Assembly: GCA_023701125.1 (NCBI GenBank) | Contig: JAMPXO010000009.1 | Span: forward strand, 5,264 to 69,263 | Source of the DNA: Vicinamibacteria bacterium | GTDB lineage: Bacteria > Acidobacteriota > Vicinamibacteria > Fen-336 | DNA length: 64,000 bases | Direction: 5' to 3' | Part shown: positions 4,627 to 56,703 of the stretch, in pieces | Numbering within the stretch: the first letter of the stretch is position 1 | Layout of the letters: the number at the start of each line of letters is the position of its first letter | Position numbers and translations under genes: made by a program | Notes under the pieces: generated by a model | Told to the model about the DNA's origin: nothing | Seen by the model: the letters and a program-made list of their open reading frames with translations, nothing else | Database searches by the model: none

Positions 4627-6270
4627 ATGCGCAAGCCGCCGCCAGCCGACGCGCCGCCCCCGGTGTCCACTGCCGGCTCGCTCTCGATCCGCCTCGGCTG
4701 CCCCAAGTGCGGCGCACCGGAGTCGATCGACGACGAGACCGTCAGCCTGCGCTGCGACCACTGCGGCTCGCTGCTGGTCGTCGCGGCCCCCGACCGCACC
4801 GAGGTCTACCTCGCGGAAGGCACGGTCGCCGAGCCCGCGGCGCTGCTGGAGACGCTGATCGAGTACCGCGTGCGGGCCCACCGCGCGGAAGTGATCCACC
4901 GTTACAAGGACAAGGACGGCAACCCGCCCCCGGAGATCTTCATCGCCGCCCAGCTCGCCCGCTTCGAGTCGAAGCTCCGCGAGCGCGCGCGGATGGTCGA
5001 GGCCCACCGCTTCTTCGTGCCCTACTGGCACGTCTCCGGGAAGATCGTGCAGGCCGTGCTCGGCCGCCGTGGCGACGGTCCCAAGTTGACCCGGGTGCGG
5101 GCCTTCGCGGTGGAGCACACCGTGCCCGGCTACGACGTCGCCCGCGCCAACCTGCGCGACAAGGGGCTGCGGCTCGCCCGCTCGCGAGTGAGGCCGCTGC
5201 TGGCCCAGGACGTCGCCGACCTGAAGGCGTTCGTCGAGGACGCGCCGCTCGCCGAGAGCTCGTGGCGCGAGATCGACCGCTACCGCGGGCGCGATCTCGA
5301 GCGCGGCATCGAATCCGTCGCGAAGAGCGGCCAGTTCCTGTTCCAGCACCGCGTGCTCGTCTATCGGCCCTACTGGGTGGCGCTCGCCGAGGCCGACAAG
5401 GGGCCGGAGTGGGTGCTGTTCGACGGCGGCTTCGGCACCGTCGCGGGCTATCCCGACGCGGCCGAGGCGCGCGCGCTGCGGCAGCAGGCCCGCCACGACC
5501 CGCTGGGCGCGGGCGAGGCCGCGTACCGCCGGATCGTCGTCGCCGCCTCGCGCTGTCCCGACTGCGGCCACGAGCAGGCCTTCGACCCGCGCGACCACGT
5601 TTCCGTGTGCCCCAACTGCCACCTCGCGCTGGAGCCGCGGCCCGCGGGCATCGCGGTCACCGGCTACGACCACGTCGTGCCGCAGACCGGGGCTTCGCTC
5701 GACGCCACGTACGTGCCCGTGTGGAGCTTCCCGTTCGAGCTGCGGATCGGCAAGGCCGCGCCGATCACCACTCTGCCCGCGTGGGGCCAGGCCGTGATCG
5801 CCGGTGGCCTGCCCGCGCCTGCCGCGCTGGCGGGCGACCGCCTCCACGTACCGGCGCTGCGGCTGCTCGGCACGGAGCCGGGCGACGAGGTGTTCAAGGC
5901 GATGGCCGAGTGGCTGCACCGCGACCCGCCGCGGGTGGCCGACGGCAAGCTGCCGCTCGGTGGCCGGCCGCGCTTCGTCGGTGCCGCGTTGTCCGAGGCC
6001 GAAGCCCGCGAGTTGGGCCCGTTCGTGCTGCTGGGCGCCTGCGGCAAGGCGGCGGCGGCCCGCCTCAATGCGATGGGCCTGAAGCGCGCGCTGTTCGACG
6101 CGGCGCTGAGCCTGGGCCCCGGCCGTCTCTTGATGCTGCCGTTCGCTCGCAACGCGGAGGGCGACCTCGCGGCCGGCGGCAACGCGGTTCGCGTCCCACG
6201 CCTGCTGCTCGAAGGCGGCGAAGCGCTGGAGCAGATGCGGGCGACGGTCTGGAGCGAGGCCGCGAAGTAG
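4627..6270 (+). CDS. hypothetical protein with two Cys4 zinc-ribbon motifs
   Basis: CPKCG..CDHCG and CPDCG..CPNCH pairs. Coherent codon bias. No recognisable catalytic domain. Confidence 0.6.
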   Translation: MRKPPPADAPPPVSTAGSLSIRLGCPKCGAPESIDDETVSLRCDHCGSLLVVAAPDRTEVYLAEGTVAEPAALLETLIEYRVRAHRAEVIHRYKDKDGNPPPEIFIAAQLARFESKLRERARMVEAHRFFVPYWHVSGKIVQAVLGRRGDGPKLTRVRAFAVEHTVPGYDVARANLRDKGLRLARSRVRPLLAQDVADLKAFVEDAPLAESSWREIDRYRGRDLERGIESVAKSGQFLFQHRVLVYRPYWVALAEADKGPEWVLFDGGFGTVAGYPDAAEARALRQQARHDPLGAGEAAYRRIVVAASRCPDCGHEQAFDPRDHVSVCPNCHLALEPRPAGIAVTGYDHVVPQTGASLDATYVPVWSFPFELRIGKAAPITTLPAWGQAVIAGGLPAPAALAGDRLHVPALRLLGTEPGDEVFKAMAEWLHRDPPRVADGKLPLGGRPRFVGAALSEAEARELGPFVLLGACGKAAAARLNAMGLKRALFDAALSLGPGRLLMLPFARNAEGDLAAGGNAVRVPRLLLEGGEALEQMRATVWSEAAK

Positions 6271-6291
6271 GGCGTCGCGCGCTCGCGTCCT

Positions 6292-7242
6292 CTAGCGAAG
6301 TTCCTTGACCGTCGAGCCGCCCTGGACGCGAGCGGTGAACGACTCGCCGACCGCGAGCTGCTGCCAGCGCTCGCAGCCGAGGTCGGAGCGGTAGGTGCGG
6401 CTGGCGCCCTTCAGCACCGCGATGCACTCTTCCTTGCGCGCGCCCTCGCGCTCGTTCCGGTCCAGGTCGAGCTGCGGCCAGTAGCGTTCTTCGCCGCCCG
6501 GGCCGTCGGCCTTCTCGGTGCGCACCGTGACCCAGCGCTCGACCTCCCACGCCGCGCGCGTGTCCTTCACCTCGCGCTCGTCGTAGACGGGCTGGTCCTC
6601 GTAGACGTCCTCGAAGAAGCCGTTGCCCTTGTCGCGGACGCCGGTCTTGACCCGCTCGGTGCCGACCTGCACGCGCTCGGTCGAGCGTACCGCCTGCCAG
6701 CGGTTCAGGACCCGGGCGCCGCTCGGGCGCTCGTCGAGCCAGCCCTCCTCGCGCACCGTCTGCAGCGCCTCGACGTCGATGCTGCGCGACCACTCGAGGT
6801 TCTCGACGGTGACGGGCTCGTCGCTCTCGCGGAATGCGAAGTAACCGAGGCCGGCGCAGAACGCCAGGCCGAGCAGCAGCAGCCCGACGACCCACTTGAA
6901 GCAGCCCGAGGATGAAGCGGCCGGCGCCGGCATCGCGGGCACCGGGCCTGCCAGCGGGATCTCCTTCACCTCGCGGGCGCGCGCCTGCTCCCGTTCGGCG
7001 CCGCACTGCTTGCACTTCTTCTCGAGCGCCGGGTTGGAGGTGGAGCAGTACTCGCAGAGCCACTCCGCGCCCGCCTCGGCCCGGCGCAGCAGCTCGGCGT
7101 CGGTGACCTCCGCCGCGTCCTCCTCGAGGAAGAACGTGACGTTCTCGTCGCGGGTCGCCCCGCAGCCCAGGCACGCGAGCTGGGAGCCGCGCTCGACCCG
7201 CCCGCAGTTCGTGCAACGCCACTTGCCTTCCCGAATCGCCAT
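6292..7242 (-). CDS. membrane protein with N-terminal double zinc ribbon and a periplasmic charged domain
   Basis: WRCTNCG..CLGCG and CEYCS..CKQCG ribbons, one TM helix (WVVGLLLLGLAFCAGLGYFAF), Glu/Arg-rich C-terminal domain. Confidence 0.6.
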   Translation of the reverse strand: MAIREGKWRCTNCGRVERGSQLACLGCGATRDENVTFFLEEDAAEVTDAELLRRAEAGAEWLCEYCSTSNPALEKKCKQCGAEREQARAREVKEIPLAGPVPAMPAPAASSSGCFKWVVGLLLLGLAFCAGLGYFAFRESDEPVTVENLEWSRSIDVEALQTVREEGWLDERPSGARVLNRWQAVRSTERVQVGTERVKTGVRDKGNGFFEDVYEDQPVYDEREVKDTRAAWEVERWVTVRTEKADGPGGEERYWPQLDLDRNEREGARKEECIAVLKGASRTYRSDLGCERWQQLAVGESFTARVQGGSTVKELR

Positions 7243-7292
7243 ACCGGGGGCGAACGCTACGAGCGGAACGGCCGCGGGTCAAGGCGCCGGCC

Positions 7293-7544
7293 TCAGGCGG
7301 GGCCGGGCTCCAACAGCGCTCGCAACGTGGCCTCGTCGACGCGGTGGCGGGCGAGTTCGTGCCCGTCCCGCATCAGCACGGGGATCTCGAAGATGTAGCG
7401 CCGCTCGAGCTCGGGGTCGTCGGCCACGTCGACCTCCTGCAGCGGCAGCCCCAGCGGACCCGCGACAGCGAGCACGACGGCGCGCATCTCGTCGCAGAGG
7501 TGGCAGCCGGGTCGGCCCACCAGCACGAGCGGGCTCCGGCTCAC
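7293..7544 (-). CDS. glutaredoxin-like protein (DUF836/YruB-type thioredoxin fold)
   Basis: PGCHLCDEM active-site-like CxxC near the N-terminus. 83 aa. Confidence 0.6.
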   Translation of the reverse strand: MSRSPLVLVGRPGCHLCDEMRAVVLAVAGPLGLPLQEVDVADDPELERRYIFEIPVLMRDGHELARHRVDEATLRALLEPGPA

Positions 7545-7725
7545 GACCGCGCCGTCGCCCCAGCCGCGGCCCGGGGCAGGATCCTGGCGCGGACGGGCGA
7601 GAGGATGAAGGGGCTCGCGGCGCGCGGCGCGCCCCCAGGGGCCGAAGCGGTCGCAGCCATGGAGCGATCAGGTTAACAACGCGCGGCCGCGGCGGGCAAG
7701 GCGATCCCCCGACCGAGCGGCTAGA

Positions 7726-9483
7726 ATGCGCCCTTCGATGGCCTGGGGAGTGCAAACCGCGCTCGCCGCCCTGCCGGTGCAGCCGGCGGCGGCGCTCCGA
7801 AGATCGTGGGCCGAAGGCTACGGAGCGCCCCAACTCAAGGCCGACGCGATGGCCGGCGCCGTGGTCGGTATCGTGGCGCTGCCGCTGTCGATGGCGCTGG
7901 CGATCGCCTCCGGCGTCGCCCCCCAGCACGGGCTCTACACCGCGATCGTGTCCGGCTTCCTGATCGCGCTGCTCGGCGGCTCGCGGGTCCAGGTCTCGGG
8001 CCCGACCGCGGCCTTCGTCGTGATCCTGGCCCCGATCGCCACCCGCCACGGCCTCGGCGGCCTGCTGGTGGCCACCGTGCTCGCCGGCCTGATGCTGATG
8101 GCGATGGGCCTCGCCCGCTTCGGCAAGCTGATCGAGTTCGTGCCGTACCCCGTCACCACCGGCTTCACTGCCGGCATCGCAGTCGTGATCGCGACCCTGC
8201 AGGTGCGCGATTTCCTGGGCCTCGACGTGGCGAAGATGCCCGAGCACTTCCCCGAGCGGGTCGCAGCCCTGTTCCACGCGCTGCCGACCGCCCACCTCTC
8301 GGACGTCGTGATCGGCGGGCTGACGCTGGCCATCCTGCTGCTGTGGCCGCAGGCCTTCCGCCAGGTGCCGGCGCCGCTGGTCGCGCTGCCGCTGGCGATC
8401 GTCGCCGCCGCGCTGATCCAGAAGCTGATCCCCGGCATGCACGCGGCGACCATCGCCGACCGATTCGCCTACGACGCCGGCGGCGGCCTGATGGCGCCCG
8501 GCATCCCGCGCCTGCCGCCGCTGCCCGGCCTGCCGTGGAACTTCCCCGGCGGCGACGGCGCGCCGCTCGGCCTCGACTTCGCGCTGATCCGCGACCTCGC
8601 CCCGTCCGCGTTCGCGATCGCGATGCTGGGCGCGATCGAGTCGCTGCTCTCGGCGGTCGTGGCGGACGGCATGACCGGCCACAAGCACGACCCCGACGCC
8701 GAGCTGTTCGCCCAGGGCGTGGGCAACCTGGTCGGCCCGTTCCTGGGCGGCTTCGCGGCCACGGGCGCGATCGCGCGCACCGCGACCAACATCCGCTCCG
8801 GTGCGAAGACCCCCGTCGCCGCCATGATCCACGCGCTGATCGTGCTGGCGGCGGTCGTGCTGCTGGCCCCGCTGCTCGGCATGCTGCCGATGGCCGCGCT
8901 CGCCGCGCTGCTGTTTGTGGTGGCGTGGAACATGAGCGAGGCCAAGCACTTCGGCCACACGCTGCGGGCCGCGCCGCGGGCCGACGTGATCGTGCTGCTG
9001 CTCTGCTTCGGGCTGACCGTGGTCTTCGACATGGTGGTCTCGGTGACGGTCGGCGTGCTGCTCGCCTCGCTGCTGTTCATGAAGCGGATGGCCGAGGTCA
9101 GCGGCGTGCGACTGGTCGAGCCCGACGAGCACCCGCGCGGCGAGCCGCTGCCGCGCGGCGTGCTGCTGTACGAGGTGGCCGGCCCACTGTTCTTCGGCGC
9201 GGCGCAGAAGGCGATGAGCGCGCTGGAGACCGTCAACCCCGGCGTGCGGGTGGTGCTGCTCGACCTGCGCGCCGTGCCGGCGATGGACGCCACCGCGATG
9301 GTCAACCTGGAGTCCGCGTTCGAGCGCCTGCACCGCCACGAGGTGCTGATCGTGCTCGGCGGCGTGCAGCCGCAGCCGCTGCGGGCGATGGCCCGCGCCG
9401 GCTGGAGCGGCCGCAAGGGCCGGCTGCTGATCTACCGCTCGTGGGACAAGGCGGTCGCCGAGGTGCGGCAGGCTTTCGGATGA
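7726..9483 (+). CDS. SulP-family anion (sulfate/bicarbonate) transporter with C-terminal STAS domain
   Basis: Polytopic membrane N-terminus typical of SulP (GLYTAIVSGF..GGSRVQVSGPTAAFVV). C-terminal STAS-like region (VVLLDLRAVPAMDATA). Confidence 0.85.
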   Translation: MRPSMAWGVQTALAALPVQPAAALRRSWAEGYGAPQLKADAMAGAVVGIVALPLSMALAIASGVAPQHGLYTAIVSGFLIALLGGSRVQVSGPTAAFVVILAPIATRHGLGGLLVATVLAGLMLMAMGLARFGKLIEFVPYPVTTGFTAGIAVVIATLQVRDFLGLDVAKMPEHFPERVAALFHALPTAHLSDVVIGGLTLAILLLWPQAFRQVPAPLVALPLAIVAAALIQKLIPGMHAATIADRFAYDAGGGLMAPGIPRLPPLPGLPWNFPGGDGAPLGLDFALIRDLAPSAFAIAMLGAIESLLSAVVADGMTGHKHDPDAELFAQGVGNLVGPFLGGFAATGAIARTATNIRSGAKTPVAAMIHALIVLAAVVLLAPLLGMLPMAALAALLFVVAWNMSEAKHFGHTLRAAPRADVIVLLLCFGLTVVFDMVVSVTVGVLLASLLFMKRMAEVSGVRLVEPDEHPRGEPLPRGVLLYEVAGPLFFGAAQKAMSALETVNPGVRVVLLDLRAVPAMDATAMVNLESAFERLHRHEVLIVLGGVQPQPLRAMARAGWSGRKGRLLIYRSWDKAVAEVRQAFG

Positions 9484-9617
9484 GCGTCCCGCTCCCGCGC
9501 CGCGGCTTCCTGGCCAGCCAGCTCGCGGCTACGCGTGGGAGTCGCGGCTCGATTTCTCGTTCCGGCTGACCGAGATCACGCCCCCGCGCTGACGCCCCGC
9601 GCTACCATCGGCGGCCA

Positions 9618-10628
9618 ATGAGCGAACCCTTCGCCGCCTGGCCCAAGACCGAAGTCCACCTCCACCTCGAGGGCACCGTGTCGCCCGAGACGCTGTGGGA
9701 CCTGGCGACGCGCAACGGTGTCCCACTTCCGGCTGCGTCGCTCGCGGAGCTGAAGGCCCACTACGCGTTCGACGGCTTCGACCGCTTCCTCACGCTGTGG
9801 CTCGCGATGTGCCGCTCGTTGCGTCAGCCGCGCGACTACGAGGAGATGGTCGACGGCTACCTCGCCGAGTGCCGGCGCCAGAACGTGCGCTACGTCGAGG
9901 CCCACTTCACGCCCTACAACCACGAGCGCTTCGGCTTCGGCGGCCGCCGCGCGCTGGACATCGTCTGCGACCGGCTGCGCGCGGCCGAGGCCGCGGGTGG
10001 CCCGGTCACCCGGCTGATCCTCGACATCCCCAGCGAGTCGGTGCCCGAGAGCGGCCCGTACACGATCGAGTTGCTCGAGCAGATCGCCGAGCCGCTGGTG
10101 GTCGCGATCGGCCTCGGCGGCCCCGAGGAGGGCTTCCCGCGGGCGCTGGTCGCCCCGTTCTTCGAGCGCGCGCGGGCGGCCGGCTACCCGTGCGTCGCCC
10201 ACGCGGGCGAGACGGCCGGCGCGTCGTTCGTGCGCGAGGTGGTCGAGCTGCTGAAGGTCCGCCGCGTGCAGCACGGCATCCGCGCGCTGGAAGACCCGGC
10301 GCTGGTGCAGGTGCTGGCCGAGCGCGAGATCTGCTGCGACGTGGCGCTGACCTCGAACTCGCTGCTGACCATCCACCGCGAGATCGCCGCCCACCCGTTG
10401 CCCGCGCTGCTCGCGGCGGGCGTGCCCTGCACGCTGTCCACCGACGACCCGCCGTTCTTCGGCACCGACCTCGACCGCGAGTACGAGCTGGCCCACCACG
10501 TGCTCGGCCTCGACCCCGCCACGCTGTGGCAGCTCAACCTCAACGGCCTCCGCTTCGGCCTCGCCGACGTAGCACTGCGCCGCCGCCTGCTCCTCGAGTT
10601 CGCGGCCTGGCGCCAGGAGAACCCGTGA
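9618..10628 (+). CDS. add: adenosine deaminase
   Basis: EVHLHLEG, AHAGE, STDDP zinc and catalytic motifs. Confidence 0.85.
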   Translation: MSEPFAAWPKTEVHLHLEGTVSPETLWDLATRNGVPLPAASLAELKAHYAFDGFDRFLTLWLAMCRSLRQPRDYEEMVDGYLAECRRQNVRYVEAHFTPYNHERFGFGGRRALDIVCDRLRAAEAAGGPVTRLILDIPSESVPESGPYTIELLEQIAEPLVVAIGLGGPEEGFPRALVAPFFERARAAGYPCVAHAGETAGASFVREVVELLKVRRVQHGIRALEDPALVQVLAEREICCDVALTSNSLLTIHREIAAHPLPALLAAGVPCTLSTDDPPFFGTDLDREYELAHHVLGLDPATLWQLNLNGLRFGLADVALRRRLLLEFAAWRQENP

Positions 10629-23366: not shown

Positions 23367-23447
23367 GGGTTCCGATGTCGGGCAGAGCCCGCCATCGGTC
23401 CCATGGGGGCTACGTCGCGAACGGAGCTCCTCCGCCCCCAAGCCCCG
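23367..23447. repeat. single 81-bp copy of the dispersed REP-like element (reverse orientation)
   Basis: GGGTTCCGATGTCGGGCAGAGCCCGCCATCGGTCCCATGGGGGCTACGTCGCGAACGGAGCTCCTCCGCCCCCAAGCCCCG is near-identical to the 31.4 kb and 56.5 kb copies. Confidence 0.85.
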
Positions 23448-23481
23448 TCGTGCTCGCCGTGCCGGTCGCCATGCTGCCGGG

Positions 23482-24390
23482 CTACCGCTTCTTCTTCGCG
23501 GCCTTGCCGCCGCCCTCGGCCTCGAGCAACGCGCGGGCCTCGGCGAAACCACGCCGCTGCTCTTCGCCCACCCTGGGGAAGTGCAGGTCGAGGCCCTCGA
23601 GTGTGTCGACGACAGCACGCGCGACCGCCAGCCGCGTGAACCACTTGTTGTCCGCGGGGATCACGTACCAGGGCGCGTCCTTCGTCGCAGTGCGGCGGAT
23701 GGCGTCCTCGTAGGCCGCCTGGTACTCGTCCCAGTGGCCGCGCTCGCGCACGTCGCCCGCCGAAAACTTCCAGTTCTTCTCCGGCTCGTCGAGCCGGGAC
23801 AGGAAGCGCCGCTTCTGCTCCGCCTTCGACACGTGCAGGAAGAACTTGACGATCTTCACGCCGTTGCGGGACAGGTAGCGCTCGTGGGCGGCGATGTCCT
23901 CGCAGCGCTGTTCCCAGATGCGCTTCGTCACCAGCTCCTCCGGCAGGTGCTGGCCCTTCAGGTACTCGGGGTGGACGCGGACGACCAGTACCTCCTCGTA
24001 GTACGAGCGGTTGAAGATGCCGATCCGCCCGCGCTCCGGCAGGCAGCGCGCGGTGCGCCACAGGAAGTCGTGGTCGAGCTCCTCGGGCGAGGGCGACTTG
24101 AACGAGAAGACCTGCACGCCCTGCGGGTTGACGCCGGACATCACGTGCTCAACCGCGCCGTCCTTGCCCGCCGCGTCCATCGCCTGGAACACGAGCAGCA
24201 CGGCCCAGCGGTCCTGGGCGTAGAGCTTCTCCTGCAGCGCAGCCAGTTGCTCGACACCCGCGGCCAACGACTCCCTGGCCTTGTCCTTGCTCTTGAGCCC
24301 GCCGGTGTCGCCGGGGTCGATGTCACGCAGCCGGAAGCGGCGACCGTCGGTGATGCGGTACGGGGCGGCGAAGTCCTTGTCCTGCGGCAT
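23482..24390 (-). CDS. polyphosphate kinase 2 (PPK2) family phosphotransferase
   Basis: Walker-A-like FQAMDAAGKDG, lid region. Start re-set to MPQDKDF, preceded by GGAGGGAG. Confidence 0.85.
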   Translation of the reverse strand: MPQDKDFAAPYRITDGRRFRLRDIDPGDTGGLKSKDKARESLAAGVEQLAALQEKLYAQDRWAVLLVFQAMDAAGKDGAVEHVMSGVNPQGVQVFSFKSPSPEELDHDFLWRTARCLPERGRIGIFNRSYYEEVLVVRVHPEYLKGQHLPEELVTKRIWEQRCEDIAAHERYLSRNGVKIVKFFLHVSKAEQKRRFLSRLDEPEKNWKFSAGDVRERGHWDEYQAAYEDAIRRTATKDAPWYVIPADNKWFTRLAVARAVVDTLEGLDLHFPRVGEEQRRGFAEARALLEAEGGGKAAKKKR

Positions 24391-29265: not shown

Positions 29266-30731
29266 ACAAGCGACTCCTCGCCAGCCTGCTGGTCCTCGCC
29301 ACGGCGGCCGCGCTGCGCTTCCACGACCTGCCTGCCCGCCCCTTCCACCACGACGAGGGCGTCAACGGCTTCTTCCTGCAGCGGCTGCACGAGTTCGGCG
29401 AGTACAAGTACGACCCCGCCAACTATCACGGCCCGACGCTCTACTTCCTGACCCTGCCGCTGACGAAGCTCTTCGGCCTGCGCGACGAGGCGCTGCGCGG
29501 CCTGACCGCCCTCGCCGGCCTCGGCGCCGTGCTGATCGCGCTCTCGATGCGCGGTGTGCTCGGCCGCACCGGCGCGCTCGTGGCGGCCGCCCTGCTCGCG
29601 GTCTCGAATTCCGCCGTCTATTACTCGCGCTACTACATTCACGAGTCACTGGTCGTGCTGTTCGGCCTCGGCGCGGCGGCTGCGGCGCTGCGCTACCTGC
29701 GCACCGGGCGCCCGCTGTTCCTGTACCTGGGTGGCGCCAGCCTCGGCCTGCTGCTGGCGACCAAGGAGACGACGGTCGTCCACATCGCGGTGGCGCTGAT
29801 CGCCGCCGCGCTCGCGATGCTGACGCGGCCCGGGCGCGCGCTGCCGCGGCCGTCGCCTGCACAGCTCGGGTCGGCCTTCGGCGTCCTGCTCGGTGTCGCC
29901 GCGGTCTTCTACTCCTCGTTCGGGCGCGACCCGCAGGGTCTCGAGGGCGCGCTGAAGACCCTCGCGATCTGGGCCAAGACCGGCCGCGAGGCCCACGTGA
30001 ACCCCTGGTACCAGCACGCGCTGTGGCTGTGGGAGGGCGACCCCGCGCTGCTCGTCGCGGGCTCGATCGGCCTGCTGCTGGTGCTGGTCCCGACCGTGAT
30101 CGGGTTGCCCGCGCGCTGGCGCGAGCTGCGCGGCGGCGCCACCGAGCTGGCGGGCCGCCCCGGCCGTGCCGACGTCGCCCTCGCCGCGGGCGCGATCGGC
30201 ATCCTCTGCGCCTACTCGCTGGTCGCCTACAAGACGCCGTGGCTCGCGCTCAACGTGTCGGTGCCGCTGGCGCTGCTCGGCGGCCTCGCCGTCGACCGCG
30301 TCGGCAGCCGCAGCCGGCTGGCCGCGGCGCTGCTGCTGGTCGCGGCGCTCGGCTTCAGCGCGCGCACGACGATGGTCCAGTCCTTCGAGCGGCCCGCGGA
30401 CGAGACCCTGCCCTGGGCCTACGCCCACACCGACCCGCGCTATCCGGAGCTGGTGCGCGCGATCCGGAGCTTCGCGGAGCGCAGCGGCGCCGGCACTTCC
30501 CAGGCCGTCACGGTCACCTCGCCGGACTACTGGCCGCTGCCGTGGACGCTGCACGACTACCCCGCGATCGGCTATTGGGGCAAGGTCCCGGAGAACATCC
30601 CGAAGGGCCTGATCCTGGCCACCGCGGTGCAGCTCGAGGAGATCGGGCGCGGGGCCGCGGCCGCGCCGCGCGAGATCAGCCGCTTTCCGCTGCGGCCCGG
30701 CGTGGAGCTGGTGCTGCTGGAGAAGCCGTAG
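29262..30731 (+). CDS. GT39/ArnT-like membrane glycosyltransferase-family protein (TIGR03663-like)
   Basis: ATG overlaps the upstream stop (ATGA). RFHDLPARPFHHDEGVNGFF N-terminal motif typical of PMT/ArnT-like GT-C enzymes. Confidence 0.65.
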   Translation: MNKRLLASLLVLATAAALRFHDLPARPFHHDEGVNGFFLQRLHEFGEYKYDPANYHGPTLYFLTLPLTKLFGLRDEALRGLTALAGLGAVLIALSMRGVLGRTGALVAAALLAVSNSAVYYSRYYIHESLVVLFGLGAAAAALRYLRTGRPLFLYLGGASLGLLLATKETTVVHIAVALIAAALAMLTRPGRALPRPSPAQLGSAFGVLLGVAAVFYSSFGRDPQGLEGALKTLAIWAKTGREAHVNPWYQHALWLWEGDPALLVAGSIGLLLVLVPTVIGLPARWRELRGGATELAGRPGRADVALAAGAIGILCAYSLVAYKTPWLALNVSVPLALLGGLAVDRVGSRSRLAAALLLVAALGFSARTTMVQSFERPADETLPWAYAHTDPRYPELVRAIRSFAERSGAGTSQAVTVTSPDYWPLPWTLHDYPAIGYWGKVPENIPKGLILATAVQLEEIGRGAAAAPREISRFPLRPGVELVLLEKP

Positions 30732-30734
30732 CGC

Positions 30735-30884
30735 TCAGGCCCGTTCGATACGGCCGTTGTAGCAGCCGGGGCGGGCGTTGTGCAGGTGCAGGTAGCGGAC
30801 CTCGGGGTCCTCGAACGGGCGCTCGATCGCGGCCTCGAGCTCCACGCCTTCCACCACCTCCGCGCCCACCATCATCGCGGCCAC
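30735..30884 (-). CDS. possible small ORF (about 49 aa) or gene remnant
   Basis: Strong GC3 codon bias over VAAMMVGAEVVEGVELEAAIERPFEDPEVRYLHLHNARPGCYNGRIERA. No recognisable family. Upstream region is AT-richer. Confidence 0.25.
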   Translation of the reverse strand: MAAMMVGAEVVEGVELEAAIERPFEDPEVRYLHLHNARPGCYNGRIERA

Positions 30885-31022
30885 GAAGCGGAAGCAAGGG
30901 GGGGCCTGACCCCGGAGATTAGGACGGGACGCCGGCTGGGGGCGAGCATTTCGTGCCGGCCTCGGGTAGTTTCGGAGGATGCGTCCCGGCAGGGGGCCGG
31001 GCGCAGAGGAGGTCGACCAAGG

Positions 31023-31385
31023 ATGAAGAGGCAGAAGCTGGTGCTGGCCGCGGTGGCTGGCCTGGTCGCCGGTGTCGGTGCCGGGGCGCAGTCCCCGGCC
31101 GCCAAGCCGGAGAACGTTCAGTGCTGGGGCGTCAACAGCTGCGGCGGGCAGGCGAAGTGTTCGGTCACCACCGAGGACCTGGCGGCCGTCAAGAAGCTGA
31201 TGGGCGACGCCGAGTACCAGAAGAAGTTCGGCAAGTCCGAGGTCCACTCCTGCTCGGGCAAGGCCAAGTGTGGCGGCACGATGGGCGTCCTCAACTGGAT
31301 GGAACTCCCCGGCGACGTCTGCAAGGCCCGCGGCGGCCTGCTGCTCGAGGGCAAGCCCGGCGCGCGCGTCGCCCGCAAGGCGTAA
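31023..31385 (+). CDS. small secreted Cys-rich protein, DUF2282/bufferin-precursor-like
   Basis: GAGGAGG RBS. Signal peptide MKRQKLVLAAVAGLVAGVGAGAQS. Core with CWGVNSC, HSCSGKAKCGG and NWMELPGDVC, resembling the DUF2282 pattern (C-Y/W-G ... SC-A/S-G ... W..VP.G.C). Confidence 0.6.
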   Translation: MKRQKLVLAAVAGLVAGVGAGAQSPAAKPENVQCWGVNSCGGQAKCSVTTEDLAAVKKLMGDAEYQKKFGKSEVHSCSGKAKCGGTMGVLNWMELPGDVCKARGGLLLEGKPGARVARKA

Positions 31386-31390
31386 CCTCC

Positions 31391-31575
31391 CGGCGCCGGA
31401 ACCCACCGGGGGTTTGGGGGCGGAGGAGTTCCGTTTGCGACGTAGCCCCCATGGGACCGGCGCCGGGTTCATCCCGGCGTCGGAACCCACCGGGGGTTTG
31501 GGGGCGGAGGAGTTCCGTTTGCGACGTAGCCCCCATGGGACCGGCGCCGGGTTCATCCCGGCGTCGGAACCCGAC
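31391..31575. repeat. tandem pair (plus a partial) of 84-bp REP-like units
   Basis: GGAACCCACCGGGGGTTTGGGGGCGGAGGAGTTCCGTTTGCGACGTAGCCCCCATGGGACCGGCGCCGGGTTCATCCCGGCGTC occurs twice head-to-tail. It has internal palindromes CCCATGGG and CGCCGGG-ttcat-CCCGGCG. Confidence 0.9.
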
Positions 31576-31635
31576 GGGCGGCCCTCCCTGGCGAGTGGCC
31601 GCCCCGCGTCGTTTCTGCGCCGCGCCGGAGGACGA

Positions 31636-32871
31636 ATGAGAACCCGCACCGTGGCCTTCACCCTCGCGAGCCTGCTGCTGCCGGCCGCGGCATCCGCAGC
31701 GGAGGCGCCCGACGTGCTCGACCAGATCCTGCGCGGGCGGCCGGAGCTCGCCACCGTGCTGCAGCAGGCCGAGCGGCACCGGCTGCAGATCCTCTACACC
31801 CAGATCGACCGCGACGCGGCCAACAAGCCGACCTTCCGCTCGTACGGCTACCGGCTCGACGACCCGCGCTACTTCTACCCCGCGAGCACGGTGAAGCTGC
31901 CCGCCGCAGTGCTGGCGCTCGAGAAGCTGCACGACCTGAAGGTCCCGGGCCTGACCCGCGACACGCCGCTGCGGATCGAGGCCGGCACGCCGCGCCAGAC
32001 GGCCGTCGACCGCGACGAGAGCAAGGCCGACGGCCTGCCGACGATCGCCCACTTCGTGAAGAAGATCTTCCTGGTCAGCGACAACGACGCCTTCAATCGG
32101 CTGTTCGAGTTCCTCGGCCAGCGCGGGCTCAACGAGCGATTGTGGGAGCTTGGCCACCAGGACGCCCGCATCCTGCGCCGACTGGAGGCCGGGATGGACG
32201 ACGCGGAGAACCGCGTCACCAACCCGTTCGTGTTCTTCCAGGGGCCGAAGGAGATCCACCGCCAGCCGCTCGCCCGCAACGACGCGGAGTGGACGATCGA
32301 CAGGCCCGACGTGCGCCAGGGTCGCGGCTACATCAAGGACGGCGCGCTGGTCGAGCAGCCGATGGACTTCAGCCGTTCCAACTTCCTGTCGCTGAAGACG
32401 CTGCAGGACGTGCTCAAGGCCGTCGTGTTCCCCGAGGCGATGCCGCAGGAGAAGCGCCTCCGGTTGAGCGAGGACGACCGCCGCTTCCTGCTGCGCGCGA
32501 TGTCGACGCTGCCCCGCGAGAGCACCGAGCCCGCCTACCCGAACCGCGACGAGTTCCCCGACGCGTACGTGAAGTACTTCCTGTACGCCGGCTCGAAGCA
32601 GCCGATCCCCGCCAACATCCGCATCTACAACAAGGTGGGCCAGGCCTACGGCTACCTGCTCGACGACGCCTACGTGGTCGACTTCGACAACGGCGTCGAG
32701 TTCCTGCTGACCGCGGTGCTGCAGGTCAACGACGACCAGGTCTACAACGACGACAAGTACGAGTACGACACCGTCGGCTTCCCGTTCCTGGCCCAGCTCG
32801 GCCGCGCGGTGTACGAGCACGAGCTGAAGCGCCCCCGCCCCCGCCGCCCGGACCTGTCCCACCTGCGTTGA
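31636..32871 (+). CDS. class-A beta-lactamase-like serine hydrolase (secreted)
   Basis: Signal peptide. STVK (SxxK), SDN, and a K-V-G (KTG-like) motif. GGAGGA RBS. The track ORF start at 31270 is an artefact of translating through the repeats. Confidence 0.7.
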   Translation: MRTRTVAFTLASLLLPAAASAAEAPDVLDQILRGRPELATVLQQAERHRLQILYTQIDRDAANKPTFRSYGYRLDDPRYFYPASTVKLPAAVLALEKLHDLKVPGLTRDTPLRIEAGTPRQTAVDRDESKADGLPTIAHFVKKIFLVSDNDAFNRLFEFLGQRGLNERLWELGHQDARILRRLEAGMDDAENRVTNPFVFFQGPKEIHRQPLARNDAEWTIDRPDVRQGRGYIKDGALVEQPMDFSRSNFLSLKTLQDVLKAVVFPEAMPQEKRLRLSEDDRRFLLRAMSTLPRESTEPAYPNRDEFPDAYVKYFLYAGSKQPIPANIRIYNKVGQAYGYLLDDAYVVDFDNGVEFLLTAVLQVNDDQVYNDDKYEYDTVGFPFLAQLGRAVYEHELKRPRPRRPDLSHLR

Positions 32872-32896
32872 GGCTTGTGCCGGGCGCCCGCCCGCC

Positions 32897-32980
32897 GACG
32901 GGGTTTGGGGGTGGAGGCCCTCCGTTCGGGCCGGAGCCCCCATGGGACCGGCGACGGGTTCATCCCGGCGCCGGAACCCA
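32897..32980. repeat. single diverged copy of the REP-like element
   Basis: GGGGTTTGGGGGTGGAGGCCCTCCGTTCGGGCCGGAGCCCCCATGGGACCGGCGACGGGTTCATCCCGGCGCCGGAACCC. Confidence 0.85.
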
Positions 32981-32997
32981 TCCCGATGCGACGACGC

Positions 32998-33417
32998 TCA
33001 GCGCCAGAGCTTCACGCCGGCGCGGCGGGCGGCCTCGCGCAGCGGACCGTCCTTGCAGGCGAGCTCCAGCCTTCGCCGCTGCGCCAGCTCGAGATAGGCC
33101 GCGTCGTAGACGGAGATCTCGTGCGTCATCGCCAACTCGGCCAGCCGCGAGAAGGCCAGCGCGGCCATCTCGTGGTCCACGCGAAGCGCGAGGCCGCCCA
33201 GCCAGCCGAGTGCCTGCTGCCGCTCCTCGGCGGTGAGCTTCTTCCTGCGGACCAGCACCGTCAGCGCGTTCGCGACCTCCAACGGCCACAGCGCCGGCAC
33301 CTCGACGGCCGCACCTTGGACCAGGGCGTCGAGCATCGACTCGGTCGCCGACGTCGCCTGTCCCGGATGTACCCAGGCCACGGCGACTGATGCGTCTGCC
33401 ACGAAGGCGGGTTTCAA
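32998..33417 (-). CDS. vapC: PIN-domain toxin VapC
   Basis: PIN fold: acidic residues (FVADASV ... YDAAYLELA). 139 aa. Confidence 0.8.
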   Translation of the reverse strand: MKPAFVADASVAVAWVHPGQATSATESMLDALVQGAAVEVPALWPLEVANALTVLVRRKKLTAEERQQALGWLGGLALRVDHEMAALAFSRLAELAMTHEISVYDAAYLELAQRRRLELACKDGPLREAARRAGVKLWR

Positions 33418-33671
33418 GCGCGCCCGTCGTCGATGGCCGCCCGGACCTCGCGGTCACTGAGGCCGGCCTTGCTCCGCCGCCGGATCTGCTGCTGCAAGCC
33501 ACGCAGGCCAGCGACGGCGCGACCCACCGCCTCCAGCCGTTGGCCTCCCTCCGGGATCACGCGAGCGACGGGCTTGTCGTGGCGGGTGATGACGATCTCC
33601 TCGCCGCGGGCCACCCGGCCCAGCAGCGCGCCGAAGTGGGTCTTGGCCTCCAGGGCCGTCACTCTGGCCAC
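33414..33671 (-). CDS. vapB: Phd/YefM-type antitoxin VapB
   Basis: 85 aa. GTG start with GGGAGGGAA RBS. ATGA overlap with vapC. TGATCA-N5-TGATCA inverted boxes in its promoter. Confidence 0.8.
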   Translation of the reverse strand: MARVTALEAKTHFGALLGRVARGEEIVITRHDKPVARVIPEGGQRLEAVGRAVAGLRGLQQQIRRRSKAGLSDREVRAAIDDGRA

Positions 33672-33747
33672 AAATTCCCTCCCGTTCGATATTGATCAGT
33701 CGATGATCATTCTAGCCGGTCGCGAGGTCCGGTAAGCTCGCGGCTCC

Positions 33748-35430
33748 ATGGCCGCCCTCGCCCTGTTCGTGATGATCGTGCTCGCCGCCGGGTACCGCCT
33801 GTACGGCGGCTGGGTGGCGGCGCAGTTCTCCCTCGACGACGGCCGCACCACGCCCGCCGTCTCGCGCGAAGACGGGGTCGATTTCGTGCCCACCCGTCCG
33901 TTCTACCTGATGGGCCAGCACTTCAGCGCGATCGCCGCCGCCGGCCCGATCGCCGGCCCGATCCTCGCCGCGCAACAGTTCGGCTGGCTGCCGTGCATCC
34001 TCTGGATCGGGCTCGGCGTGATCTTCATCGGCGCAGTGCACGATTTCTCCGCGCTGGTCGCCTCCGTGCGCCACGAGGCGCGCTCGATCGCGGAGATCGT
34101 GCGCATCCACCTCGGCACGCGGGCGTGGAAGGCGATCATGGCCTTCATCTGGCTGGCCCTCGTCTACGTGATCCTGGCCTTCACGGACATCACCGCCGCC
34201 ACGTTCGTGGGCGTGACGGAGGACATCGCGGGTCTCTCCTTCTCCTTCAATCCCGGCGGCGCGGTCGCGCTGGCGTCGGTGCTCTACCTGGTGCTGTCGA
34301 TGCTGCTCGGCCTCGCCGAGCGCTACCTGCACCCGCCGCTGTGGCTGACGACGGTGATCGGCGTGCCGGCCACGCTGCTGTGCGTCTGGCTCGGCACCCA
34401 GTACTCGACGCTGCTGGTCGCGGACGCCCGCACCTGGGGCGTGATCATCCTGCTCTATTGCCTGGTCGCCTCGCTGACCCCCGTGTGGCTGCTGCTTCAG
34501 CCGCGCGGATATCTCGGCGGCTTCGTGCTCTACATGGCGATCGCGGTCGGCCTGATCGGCATCTTCTTCGGCGGCTTCGAGATCCAGCAGGACGCGTTCA
34601 AGACCTGGCACGCGCCCGGCGCCACCGGCGCGCTGTTCCCGTTCCTGTTCGTGACCATCGCCTGCGGCGCCTGCTCCGGCTTCCACGGCCTCGTCTGCTC
34701 GGGCACCACGTCGAAGCAGATCGCCCACGAATCGGACACGCGGCCCGTCGGCTACGGCGCGATGCTGCTCGAGGGCTTCGTGGCGCTGATCGCGCTGTCG
34801 ACCGTGATGATCGCGGTGCCGGCCGAGCTCGCCGGCAAGGGCCCGGGGGCCATCTACGGCGCCGGCCTCGGCCGCTACCTGACCGTGTTGATCGGCGAAC
34901 AGCACCTGCTGTTCGCCACGACCTTCGGCGCGATGGCGTTCTCGACCTTCGTCTTCGACACCCTCGACGTCACCACCCGGCTCGGCCGCTACATCGTCCA
35001 GGAGCTGTTCGGGGCGACCAGCCGCACGGGCGCCTGGATCGGCACCGCGGTCACCGTGCTGGTGCCGCTCGCGCTGCTGCTGCTGGCCGGCGAGGGCGCG
35101 TACCGCTCGTTCTGGGTCCTGTTCGGCACCTCGAACCAGTTGCTGGCGGCGCTGAGCCTGCTCGGCATCTCGGTGTGGCTGCGGCGAACCGGGCGGCGCA
35201 GTCTCTTCACGCTGCTGCCGATGGCGTTCGTGCTGACGATCACGCTGGCCTCGCTGGTGATCCAGATCCGGGCCGCGGCGGCCCAGGTCGCGGCCCGCGG
35301 CGTCGCCTTCGATGTGGGGGATCTCAACGGTTTCGTCTCCGTGCTGCTCTTCGGGCTGGCGCTGGTCCAGGTCGTGGAGGCCGTGCGGGCCTGGAAGCGC
35401 CCCCTGGACGCTGCCGGGGCCATCGCGTAA
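33748..35430 (+). CDS. cstA: carbon starvation protein A (peptide transporter family)
   Basis: Strong CstA-like N-terminus (FYLMGQHFSAIAAAGPIAGPILAAQ..) and length. Confidence 0.85.
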   Translation: MAALALFVMIVLAAGYRLYGGWVAAQFSLDDGRTTPAVSREDGVDFVPTRPFYLMGQHFSAIAAAGPIAGPILAAQQFGWLPCILWIGLGVIFIGAVHDFSALVASVRHEARSIAEIVRIHLGTRAWKAIMAFIWLALVYVILAFTDITAATFVGVTEDIAGLSFSFNPGGAVALASVLYLVLSMLLGLAERYLHPPLWLTTVIGVPATLLCVWLGTQYSTLLVADARTWGVIILLYCLVASLTPVWLLLQPRGYLGGFVLYMAIAVGLIGIFFGGFEIQQDAFKTWHAPGATGALFPFLFVTIACGACSGFHGLVCSGTTSKQIAHESDTRPVGYGAMLLEGFVALIALSTVMIAVPAELAGKGPGAIYGAGLGRYLTVLIGEQHLLFATTFGAMAFSTFVFDTLDVTTRLGRYIVQELFGATSRTGAWIGTAVTVLVPLALLLLAGEGAYRSFWVLFGTSNQLLAALSLLGISVWLRRTGRRSLFTLLPMAFVLTITLASLVIQIRAAAAQVAARGVAFDVGDLNGFVSVLLFGLALVQVVEAVRAWKRPLDAAGAIA

Positions 35431-35438
35431 CTGCCCGT

Positions 35439-35522
35439 CGGTTCCGTCGCCGGGGGAACCCGGCGCCGGTCCCATGGGGCCTACGTCGCCAACGGCGGCT
35501 CCTCCGCCCCAAACCCCCGTCG
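35439..35522. repeat. single copy of the REP-like element (reverse orientation)
   Basis: CGGGGGAACCCGGCGCCGGTCCCATGGGGCCTACGTCGCCAACGGCGGCTCCTCCGCCCCAAACCCCCG, starting 9 bp after the cstA stop. Confidence 0.85.
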
Positions 35523-35692
35523 AAGTTCGCGAAACCGGGCTCCTCATGGGCGCCTCATCGACGGCTCGGCAACAACATTCAATTTTCACGAAACCCCCGC
35601 GTCGCTGCCGGCGTCTTACTCGGCAGTCCAGCACATTCGACGCGGGCGCCCGAGGGGGGCTTCGGAGCGGCCTGCGAGGAGCACAGCACGCG

Positions 35693-56506: not shown

Positions 56507-56703
56507 GCGCGCGGGGGTTTACTGGGTTCCGTTGCCGGGCAAAGCCCGTCACCGGTCCCATGGGGGCTACGTCGCAAACGGAAGCTCCTCCGCCCCCAAA
56601 CCCCAGCCGGGTTCCGTTGCCGGGCAAAGCCCGTCACCGGTCCCATGGGGGCTACGTCGCAAACGGAAGCTCCTCCGCCCCCAAACCCCAGCCGGGTTCC
56701 GTT
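56507..56703. repeat. tandem array of REP-like units (2 full 85-bp units plus an 11-bp partial, reverse orientation)
   Basis: GGGTTCCGTTGCCGGGCAAAGCCCGTCACCGGTCCCATGGGGGCTACGTCGCAAACGGAAGCTCCTCCGCCCCCAAACCCCAGCC repeated at 56524 and 56609. Fills the whole gap between the permease stop (56504) and the DinB-like stop (56704). Confidence 0.9.

Follow-up and report, generated by a model that had tools for sequence, protein, structure and literature searches.

Bufferins, first described in 2024–2025, constitute a widespread copper defence and form the largest group among MNIO-modified RiPPs. In functional bufferins, according to PMC11626156, conversion of the central cysteines yields 5-thiooxazoles (−4 Da per cysteine), copper is bound with high affinity and expression is induced by copper; a disulfide joins CysI to the last cysteine and, in BufA1, connects the first strand to the short helix. 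Stand-alone Buf1 and Buf2 precursor genes are reported to make up a sizeable proportion (PMC12452194). Two fates have been considered for their products: either they are modified from another locus, or they are not modified (PMC12452194, Fig. 3d–e, Table 3). Maturation in trans has already been proposed, and Buf precursors almost never occur in a complete genome without an MNIO somewhere: of the 864 complete genomes that encode Buf2 precursors, none lacks one (PMC12452194).

A bufferin-like gene and its surroundings

The window, that is, the whole 64-kb stretch of DNA analysed here, contains a 120-residue open reading frame (ORF). GenBank, where the source is a Vicinamibacteria MAG, lists its product as a hypothetical protein. 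As judged from sequence, this protein very probably belongs to the bufferin superfamily, as an orphan. The features of the locus are as follows.

30735–30875, minus strand: last 46 codons of a DUF1203 gene, a C-terminal remnant (44.3 bits on PF06718, over positions 72–116 of the 116 in the profile)
30977–31022, plus strand: 5′ leader with ribosome-binding site (RBS), conserved in the orthologous locus L007
31023–31385, plus strand: very probable bufferin-superfamily gene, 'long-form' and BufA2-like, 120 residues (ORF list, GC3, dN/dS, NCBIfam, hhalign)
31023–31088, plus strand: predicted Sec-type signal peptide, approximately residues 1–22 (inspection and hydropathy; putative cleavage site)
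31164–31235, plus strand: insertion of about 24 residues (approximately residues 48–71, VTTEDLAAVKKLMGDAEYQKKFGK) between CysIII and the H-x-C motif of CysIV (gap in hhalign alignments with BufA2 and BufA1; AF2)
31388–31572, plus strand: array of a dispersed, 83–84-bp, GC-rich, hairpin-forming repeat (repeat finding, blastn census, RNA fold)
31636–32871, plus strand: class-A beta-lactamase-like (Beta-lactamase2) gene with its own signal peptide (PF13354, 46.5 bits)

The ORF at 31023–31385 is a real, functional gene under purifying selection, because its third codon positions are strongly GC-biased (GC1/2/3 = 0.65/0.50/0.93), its dN/dS is 0.25–0.26 when compared with two orthologues, and it aligns with a conserved family. 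A GGAGG RBS lies at 31008–31012, 10 nt 5′ of the ATG, and is also kept in L007, the sister genome, to which the block formed by leader and ORF (30977–31390) is about 85% identical; upstream of this block, the two sequences do not align. The RBS and the Sec signal peptide had both been recognized in a preliminary description of this DNA, and both are borne out: by inspection and hydropathy, the N-terminus consists of MKRQK, a hydrophobic stretch (L6–A22) and GAGA|QS. Sec export is predicted, and the mature exported product would comprise about 98 residues. Scans for sigma-70 promoters and intrinsic terminators around the gene found none, and are uninformative for the host phylum and GC content.

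The region upstream of the gene had been described as an AT-richer untranslated stretch. This does not hold: its GC content is 0.68–0.73, versus a window mean of 0.726, and most of it is filled by the DUF1203 remnant, which is nevertheless separate from the bufferin-like gene. The remnant lies within a stretch of about 245 bp (30732–30976) that the sister genome does not have, the alignment with L007 breaking at 30731 and resuming at 30977.

The repeat array begins 3 nt past the stop codon, immediately downstream as first described. It consists of a 17-nt partial copy (31388–31404) and two full copies (31406–31488 and 31490–31572), which are 99–100% identical, and its predicted RNA fold has a free energy of −125 kcal/mol (z = −4.4). 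Six other places in the window carry more copies (eight sites in total in the blastn census). The array is missing from the orthologous loci L003 and L007, where the spacer is 70 bp; the repeat is absent from the whole syntenic L007 stretch, and its sites in the window coincide with window-specific insertions. An Rfam scan of the whole window, repeat included, matched no family. The repeat resembles REP/MITE-like elements in being short (83–84 bp), GC-rich, hairpin-forming, intergenic, sometimes tandem and variable between close genomes; it has no Rfam family, and its relation to the bufferin-like gene is one of adjacency alone. We take the array for an ordinary REP/MITE-like element, specific to this genome, that was recently inserted between the bufferin-like gene and the next gene; it is unrelated to the former, for which its role is at most that of a 3′ transcript hairpin.

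The genes flanking the locus in the window encode a PMT_2 glycosyltransferase and the beta-lactamase-like protein, the latter as originally noted; no metal-related gene adjoins. The order of the bufferin-like and beta-lactamase-like genes is the same in the closest relatives (L003, L005 and L007). This association is syntenic only, and we found no evidence for a functional link between the two. MNIO (DUF692), BufC/DUF2063 and DoxX genes are all absent from the 64-kb window, both by tblastn (E ≤ 0.01) and by hmmsearch --max on the six-frame translation (E ≤ 1), as the preliminary description had stated. The gene is therefore an orphan in the sense that it has no partners in the window, but this status is not unusual, since stand-alone Buf1 and Buf2 precursors are documented (PMC12452194).

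Family assignment and predicted fold

The encoded protein had been likened to the DUF2282 (BufA1) precursors of bufferins. Homology to bufferins is upheld by the profile comparisons below, but membership in DUF2282 is not. Pfam PF10048 (DUF2282; gathering threshold 22.4 bits) does not match the protein even at E ≤ 10, and a local HMM built from seven BufA1 sequences scores it at 17.6 bits. Distant long-form relatives (P0163, P0080 and P0161) do exceed the DUF2282 gathering score, such relatives reaching 38–46 bits. The sole NCBIfam match is to BufA2 (NF050166), in two stretches, with an E-value of 1e-6 and a score of 28.9 bits, under the 60-bit cutoff of the model. Other long-form members score 19–33 bits on the same model, compared with 39–139 bits for classical BufA2 controls; an MNIO-linked control (L024), with 38.9 bits, likewise falls under the cutoff. 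A Pfam GerD match was dismissed as noise.

Profile–profile comparison with hhalign aligned the clade of the window protein with BufA2 at a probability of 99.5% (E 3.9e-22), over the signal peptide, CysI–CysV (five of the six cysteines), the tryptophan and the GG. The corresponding comparison with BufA1/DUF2282 gave 95.7% (E 1e-8); here the signal peptide, H75-S-C77-S-G, W92, C100 and GG104–105 line up, two cysteines are extra, and the insertion makes it ambiguous where CysII belongs. Among the curated models, BufA2, not BufA1, is the nearest, with a sub-threshold score. The protein also matches the long-form family over its full length, insertion included, and a local HMM of that family (alignment A2, which contains the ORF itself) scores it at 120.7 bits.

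The protein contains six cysteines (C34, C40, C46, C77, C83 and C100), together with H75 and W92. They form the framework C-x5-C-x5-C (C34–C40–C46), H-x-C-x5-C (C77–C83), W, C and GG, so that the six-Cys BufA2 spacing is found behind a Sec-type signal peptide. In the AF2 model (overall pLDDT 77.5 for the 120 residues), the signal-peptide region, which aligns with those of BufA2 and BufA1 precursors, has low pLDDT, whereas residues 51–70 have a pLDDT of 95. The insertion is predicted to form two helices (50–60 and 62–69). C34 is borne by a predicted strand (31–35) and C100 by a predicted helix (97–102), a placement that agrees with the published disulfide of BufA1.

Relatives with and without a linked MNIO

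A search of 5.8 billion proteins yielded ten homologues, and a profile search of 1.84 billion yielded 119 representatives, about 60 of them full-length; the 119 include false positives with RCC1 repeats. These large multi-repeat matches (for example, P0067 and P0105) share a CWGxNxxGQLG-like motif and are not relatives. In alignment A1, C34, C40, H75, C77, C83 and W92 are invariant; CysIII is lost in one subclade (P0007–P0010) and CysVI in P0006.

The clade of the window protein is one of Acidobacteriota (Vicinamibacteria, Bryobacteraceae and others) and comprises about 20 loci with 42–93% identity. HMM scans detected an MNIO or partner gene within up to 10 kb at none of them, and the same HMMs detected the partner genes in the positive controls (L023–L030 and L034–L050). 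In members of the clade the insertion is five residues longer, and the C-terminal V-A-(R/K)-K-(A/S) is invariant. DoxX genes lie 0.1–8 kb away at six clade loci, the window locus not being one of them. They score 72 bits on the NCBIfam HvfX model (cutoff 80); this match extends over no more than the generic DoxX half of the model, and any BGC-linked DoxX matches equally well, so that we do not regard it as proof of a link to RiPPs. Outside the window's own subclade, recurrent neighbours encode an NDH-2-like flavoprotein with a cNMP_binding domain, HbpS-like/cupin proteins, DoxX, ECF sigma/anti-sigma factors and S8 peptidases.

Members that share this architecture but are more remote reside in canonical precursor–MNIO–partner operons. 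A long-form precursor followed by a PF05114 MNIO and a partner gene is found at L026 (Silvanigrella aquatica, CP017834), L027, L029/L030, L034 and L035, and the MNIO of L026 is BufB-like (282 bits). Identity between the window protein and the precursors of L034 and L035 is 37% and 39%, respectively, over the full length and with all six cysteines aligned (BLASTP E-values 5e-24 and 3e-22). An earlier suggestion that the gene might represent a distinct small-protein family is thereby overturned, as far as independence from MNIO systems is concerned: the genes of six-Cys relatives bearing the insertion immediately precede those of a BufB-like MNIO and its partner. At the MNIO-linked loci the partner has 250–280 residues, precursors are often in tandem, and many precursors have four cysteines only. 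An orphan long-form gene (L022) is present in Silvanigrellaceae, other members of the order carrying linked copies, and MNIOs are found in Acidobacteriota. A metagenome search with the narrower alignment A5 returned one long-form locus (L035); the remaining matches were classical BufA1 operons drawn in by a shared KCYGI motif.

Proposed function and maturation

The function we propose is modelled on the Caulobacter bufferins (PMC11626156), and the disulfide, the modification and the copper binding are all carried over by analogy. After export, a C34–C100 (CysI–CysVI) disulfide would tie strand β1 to the short helix. C40, C46, C77 and C83 would then lie beside the invariant H75 and could form a metal site, through which the exported protein would buffer periplasmic copper. 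We think a metal-binding role somewhat more likely than not.

As to maturation, our preferred version, held tentatively, is that a BufB-type MNIO and its partner encoded elsewhere in the genome act in trans, and would convert the central cysteines to 5-thiooxazoles prior to export. It is supported by the 864 genomes among which none lacks an MNIO, by the commonness of stand-alone precursors, by the MNIOs of Acidobacteriota and by the Silvanigrellaceae orphan. We count against it the loss of CysIII in P0007–P0010 and of CysVI in P0006, the failure to reach the curated BufA1 and BufA2 thresholds, and the lack of an adjoining metal-related gene.

That the clade is unlinked at every locus examined (about 20, down to 42% identity) fits a lost dependence on MNIO equally well. 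The protein might then be an MNIO-independent descendant of a bufferin precursor: an unmodified, disulfide-stabilized periplasmic protein, binding metal or sensing redox state directly through its free cysteine thiolates and His75. Besides the fact that no clade locus, over the whole range of 42–93% identity, has an MNIO or partner gene within up to 10 kb, this possibility draws on traits peculiar to the clade (the longer insertion and the invariant C-terminal motif), on the loss of CysIII in one subclade, on the recurrence of redox- and stress-type neighbours outside the window's subclade, and on the literature, in which a lack of modification is one of the two options for stand-alone precursors (PMC12452194). 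However, copper binding by Buf1 needs the thiooxazoles (PMC11626156); the exact BufA2 cysteine spacing and the H-x-C motif are kept, as in the MNIO-linked relatives; and precursors without an MNIO are almost absent from complete genomes (PMC12452194). We regard such independence as conceivable but somewhat doubtful.

A functionless relic, the leftover precursor gene of a broken buf operon, is disfavoured and highly improbable. Compared with the sister genome, the locus does show disturbance, with the DUF1203 remnant upstream and the repeat insertion downstream, and maturase genes are absent nearby. Yet the ORF is intact, its RBS is conserved and its dN/dS is 0.25, the key residues are invariant in a clade that reaches 42% identity and spans many MAGs and metagenomes, and the gene order is the same in related species. 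Finally, a chance resemblance between bufferins and the Cys motifs of an unrelated small-protein family, which the lack of a Pfam match, the sub-threshold NCBIfam score and the unrelated RCC1-repeat proteins attracted by the CWGxN motif might suggest, is refuted by the profile–profile alignment over signal peptide, CysI–CysV, W and GG and by the genomic context of a continuum of full-length relatives, some past the DUF2282 gathering score and some in MNIO operons, leaving it with a negligible probability.

Trans maturation thus remains our preferred reading. A broader form of the alternative, likewise conceivable but somewhat doubtful, is that the whole Acidobacteriota clade has escaped its MNIO maturase and that its Sec-exported Cys/His protein, unmodified and equipped with a new helical module, would serve under metal or redox stress. 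If true, a RiPP precursor would have turned into an ordinary small periplasmic protein. As context for this idea, many relatives are encoded beside HbpS-like/cupin, NDH-2–cNMP, DoxX, ECF-sigma and S8-peptidase genes.

Comparison with known bufferin systems

With BufA2/Buf2 (BUF_6/12Cys; Caulobacter vibrioides CCNA_03001; NF050166; PMC11626156, PMC12452194), the window protein has in common a Sec signal peptide, the six-Cys spacing and C-x-G-(V/I)-N-x-C, and its predicted small β/α fold would place CysI and CysVI as in the published disulfide. It differs by the two-helix insertion of about 24 residues, which lengthens the CysIII–CysIV spacer to 30 residues (about 6–8 in BufA2), by four extra residues before the tryptophan, and by the replacement of the second N-x-C-K-G motif with (A/G)-K-C-G-G; in addition, the gene has no adjoining MNIO or DUF2063. 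With BufA1/DUF2282 it shares the motifs K/Q-C-(W/Y)-G, H-S-C-(A/S)-G, W, G-x-C-K and GG. The best-conserved cysteines of the long-form family (C34, C46, C77 and C100) resemble the four-Cys pattern of BufA1, three of them aligning directly and CysII being ambiguous. Two extra cysteines and the insertion set the window protein apart from BufA1, and no buf1-type operon (MNIO, DUF2063, DoxX, SigF/NrsF) surrounds its gene.

The long-form precursors of MNIO operons (L026, L027, L029, L034 and L035) are the true nearest functional relatives, with the same length, helical insertion and Cys framework. There, a BufB-like MNIO and its partner directly follow the precursor, whereas such linkage is lacking for the window gene and the rest of its Acidobacteriota clade. 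What our analysis adds is a subfamily that is divergent and bears a helical insertion; the curated BufA1 and BufA2 models miss it, and the window member is annotated only as a hypothetical protein. The subfamily has two branches, one in classical MNIO operons and one, in Acidobacteriota, unlinked at every locus examined. Comparing both would provide a compact test of whether proteins with the bufferin fold can function without thiooxazoles, and better annotation models are a possible further gain.

The stand-alone precursors of PMC12452194 are alike in being precursor-like genes with no adjacent MNIO. They were found with canonical Buf1 and Buf2 HMMs, and most come from genomes of Pseudomonadota in which linked copies are present as well; here, unlike in those cases, a whole divergent Acidobacteriota clade is unlinked and lies under the thresholds of the curated models. 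As stand-alone precursors have already been documented, the locus reveals no new system but extends a known one.

A cysteine-rich protein of exported type

The bufferin-like ORF is a real gene. Its codon-position GC content (0.65/0.50/0.93) follows the real-gene pattern for genomes of such GC (the window is 72.6% GC), and dN/dS is 0.25–0.26 against the orthologues (83% amino acid identity) in L007, a sister genome, and L003. The proposed ribosome-binding site is present (GGAGG, 10 nt 5′ of the ATG), inside a 46-bp leader with a conserved counterpart in L007; the DNA further upstream cannot be aligned. The AT-richer upstream stretch of the preliminary description is not evident (GC 0.68–0.73 there), and part of it holds a DUF1203 remnant, with the PMT_2 gene on one side and the bufferin-like gene on the other. 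Around this remnant, ~245 bp (30732-30976) are missing from L007, which has 45 bp there instead.

30735-30875, − strand: C-terminal remnant of a DUF1203 gene, 46 codons (PF06718, profile positions 72–116 of 116)
31023-31385, + strand: bufferin-like ORF, 120 aa

The protein is of the exported type, with what on inspection looks like the expected Sec signal peptide (MKRQK, hydrophobic L6–A22, GAGA↓QS). Its mature part contains six cysteines (C34, C40, C46, C77, C83 and C100, here CysI–VI), one histidine and W92. An identical protein is deposited as MCM2254703.1 (GenBank), titled 'MAG: hypothetical protein NDJ94_03430 [Vicinamibacteria bacterium]'.

Relationship to BufA1 and BufA2

The protein encoded by the window ORF is a bufferin homologue. 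The suggested DUF2282 membership did not hold in Pfam, which returned no DUF2282 match even at E ≤ 10; the single NCBIfam match is BufA2 (NF050166; E 1e-6, 28.9 bits where the cutoff is 60, in two stretches). Ten relatives (alignment A1) emerged when 5.8 billion proteins were searched by word index, and full HMMER profile searching across 1.84 billion representatives gave 119 matches, including RCC1-repeat false positives. About 60 of the 119 are full-length proteins of 110–145 aa with the same layout, and some are classical BufA2 proteins (85–95 aa) matching in two stretches. The remainder (P0067, P0079, P0081, P0105 and others) were rejected as RCC1-like repeat proteins, with 5–12 stretches per protein; they cross-match because of a common 'C-W-G-x-N-x-x-G-Q-L-G'-like motif, a pitfall for motif-based mining of bufferin-like precursors.

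In a broad alignment of long-form proteins (A2, 54 sequences), defined by an insertion between CysIII and the H-x-C motif of CysIV, C34 and C77 are invariant, conservation is 90% or more at G36, C46, L90, W92, C100 and G105, and C40 and C83 are variable. Profile–profile comparison of A2 with classical BufA2 (A3) gave 99.5% probability (E 1.1e-22), aligning the signal peptide, CysI–III, H-x-C(IV), CysV, the Trp and GG; in the pairwise rows as printed, the CysVI column is shifted by two positions. Relative to A3, A2 shows a gap of ~24 residues between CysIII and H-x-C, and 4 additional residues before the Trp. A1 alone matches BufA2 at 99.5% (E 3.9e-22) and BufA1/DUF2282 at 95.7% (E 1e-8). The distant long-form Silvanigrellales proteins P0163 (NCBI name, 'DUF2282 domain-containing protein'), P0080 and P0161 clear the Pfam DUF2282 gathering score, in two stretches. 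Thus, by these scores and members, the family bridges BufA1 and BufA2; the Cys framework of the window protein is nearest to BufA2.

Three four-Cys variants from the same clade (P0022, P0025 and P0051; 85–90 aa) resemble clean deletions that run from one to the other of two nearly identical internal motifs (C-G-S-H-A-K-C ... C-G-S-H-A-K-C-G) and take out CysIII, the insertion and CysIV. Whether genuine recombination products or assembly artefacts, as either is possible, these variants also reveal an internal Cys-motif duplication.

Predicted structure

An AlphaFold2 model with A2 as input alignment (pLDDT 77.5, pTM 0.65) contains the following elements.

Residues 31–35: strand carrying C34
Residues 50–60 and 62–69: two confident helices, corresponding to the insertion
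Residues 92–96: strand containing W92
Residues 97–102: helix carrying C100
C-terminal to helix 97–102: two further strands

Comparison of the model with solved structures found none similar. In the published description of BufA1, a disulfide joins the first strand to a short helix, and the predicted positions of C34 and C100 agree with this bond. By analogy with the Caulobacter work, C34–C100 would be the structural disulfide, the central cysteines beside H75 would form the copper site, and the protein may buffer periplasmic copper (PMC11626156).

Maturase linkage and maturation

Local HMMs for the MNIO and its BufC-type partner, built on Pfam-confirmed seeds (PF05114 at 359–369 bits, and PF09836), were run with --max on the window and every fetched locus, translated in six frames. 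All positive controls were detected: classical BufA2 loci (L023–L025), BufA1 loci (L036–L050) and long-form loci (L026 from Silvanigrella aquatica, L027, L029/L030, L034 and L035). In these long-form loci an MNIO and a 250–280-aa partner come immediately after the precursor; the L026 MNIO is BufB-like (282 bits against a cutoff of 310). The window protein is 37% identical to the first L034 precursor over 115 aa and 39% identical to that of L035 over 92 aa, the insertion and six cysteines all aligning in both. Close relatives of the window protein are MNIO-linked.

Two divergent precursors in tandem often precede the single MNIO of an MNIO-linked long-form locus (L027 10001-10867; L034 9597-10363, one six-Cys and one four-Cys). 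Separately, the alphaproteobacterial BufA2 locus L023 has a second MNIO–DUF2063–DoxX set (5470-7557) ~3–4.5 kb upstream of the first operon, with no precursor for it identified in the ORF list inspected.

The window gene's own clade is unlinked. The same search found no MNIO or partner gene in the 64-kb window, upholding the orphan status first proposed, in any window-clade locus (L001–L021, L031–L032; Vicinamibacteria, Bryobacteraceae and other Acidobacteriota MAGs, 42–93% identity), or in the Silvanigrellaceae orphan locus L022. DoxX is likewise missing from the window; six Acidobacteriota clade loci (L002, at 9361-9861 and divergently adjacent; L009, L012, L013, L017 and L021) have it at a distance of 0.1–8 kb from the orphan gene. 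Against the NCBIfam model 'HvfX family Cu-binding RiPP maturation protein' (cutoff 80) these DoxX proteins score ~72 bits, equal to a BGC-linked DoxX; they may be either a buf-type cluster remnant or mere lineage synteny.

Outside the window's subclade, recurrent neighbours (L002, L009, L012, L014, L015, L017, L021 and L031) are an NDH-2-like flavoprotein that carries a cNMP-binding domain, HbpS-like/cupin proteins, DoxX, ECF sigma and zf-HC2 anti-sigma pairs, and an S8 peptidase, which is the direct neighbour in four loci. As a set, these genes resemble a neighbourhood for redox or stress functions. The window subclade (the window and L003–L008) conserves the order NAD-dependent reductase, 619-aa membrane protein, PMT_2 glycosyltransferase, bufferin-like gene and Beta-lactamase2-like protein, the last being the downstream hydrolase already described.

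We tentatively prefer maturation in trans, with the cysteines made thiooxazoles by a maturase encoded elsewhere: a literature count found 0 of 864 Buf2-precursor complete genomes without an MNIO, stand-alone precursors are common (PMC12452194), Acidobacteriota contain MNIOs and a Buf2 cluster, and the protein strictly keeps the modification-site framework. That it functions unmodified, independently of an MNIO, is possible but more doubtful; it is favoured by a deep clade never linked to an MNIO in the loci examined, with its own sequence traits and neighbourhood, and by one subclade that has lost CysIII. All other readings are unlikely.

A genome-specific hairpin repeat

The repeat array reported downstream is indeed there, starting 3 nt past the stop codon with a 17-nt partial and two 83–84-bp copies (99–100% identical). 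Each unit forms a pair of GC-rich hairpins, the stem of one being 11 bp long, and folding of the 201-nt region gives −125 kcal/mol (z = −4.4). Rfam holds no family for it.

2154-2175, + strand: partial copy
23396-23446, − strand: copy in window-specific insertion 23370-23509
31388-31572, + strand: array downstream of the gene
32900-32979, + strand: copy
35440-35519, − strand: copy
56552-56604 and 56637-56689, − strand: tandem pair, 85-bp spacing

The repeat was absent from the fetched loci of other genomes. Its sole match outside the window is a 34-nt contig end of the same organism (L001 4595-4628), a Logan short-read contig that carries an identical gene and ends 34 nt into the array, which suggests that the repeat breaks assemblies of this organism. 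Against L007 (~84% nucleotide identity) the window has four specific insertions; in three of them (23370-23509, 31391-31670 and 32872-35542) the repeat lies inside or at the flanks. Copies confined, among the loci fetched, to the window organism, together with these insertions, point to a recently active, genome-specific REP/MITE-like element. Its position behind the bufferin-like gene is a happenstance landing; a role as 3′ stabiliser or terminator is possible.

The 2.67-kb insertion at 32872-35542, bracketed by inverted copies (32900-32979 and 35440-35519), could be a mobile or recombined segment flanked by repeats.

32998-33417, − strand: PIN/VapC toxin
33414-33671, − strand: Phd/YefM antitoxin
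33748-35430, + strand: CstA carbon-starvation transporter

Comparison with known families

Stand-alone bufferin precursors have already been reported (PMC12452194), and databases already contain insertion-bearing relatives labelled as DUF2282. The insertion-bearing subfamily as such, and its Acidobacteriota branch, unlinked in every locus examined, seem not to have been described in the literature searched. Among known families, BufA2 (Buf_6/12Cys) and BufA1 (DUF2282) come closest. The window protein scores below the curated thresholds of both and its gene lacks the adjacent maturase genes of a bufferin operon, so we classify it as a divergent bufferin-superfamily protein, not as an equivalog of BufA1 or BufA2.
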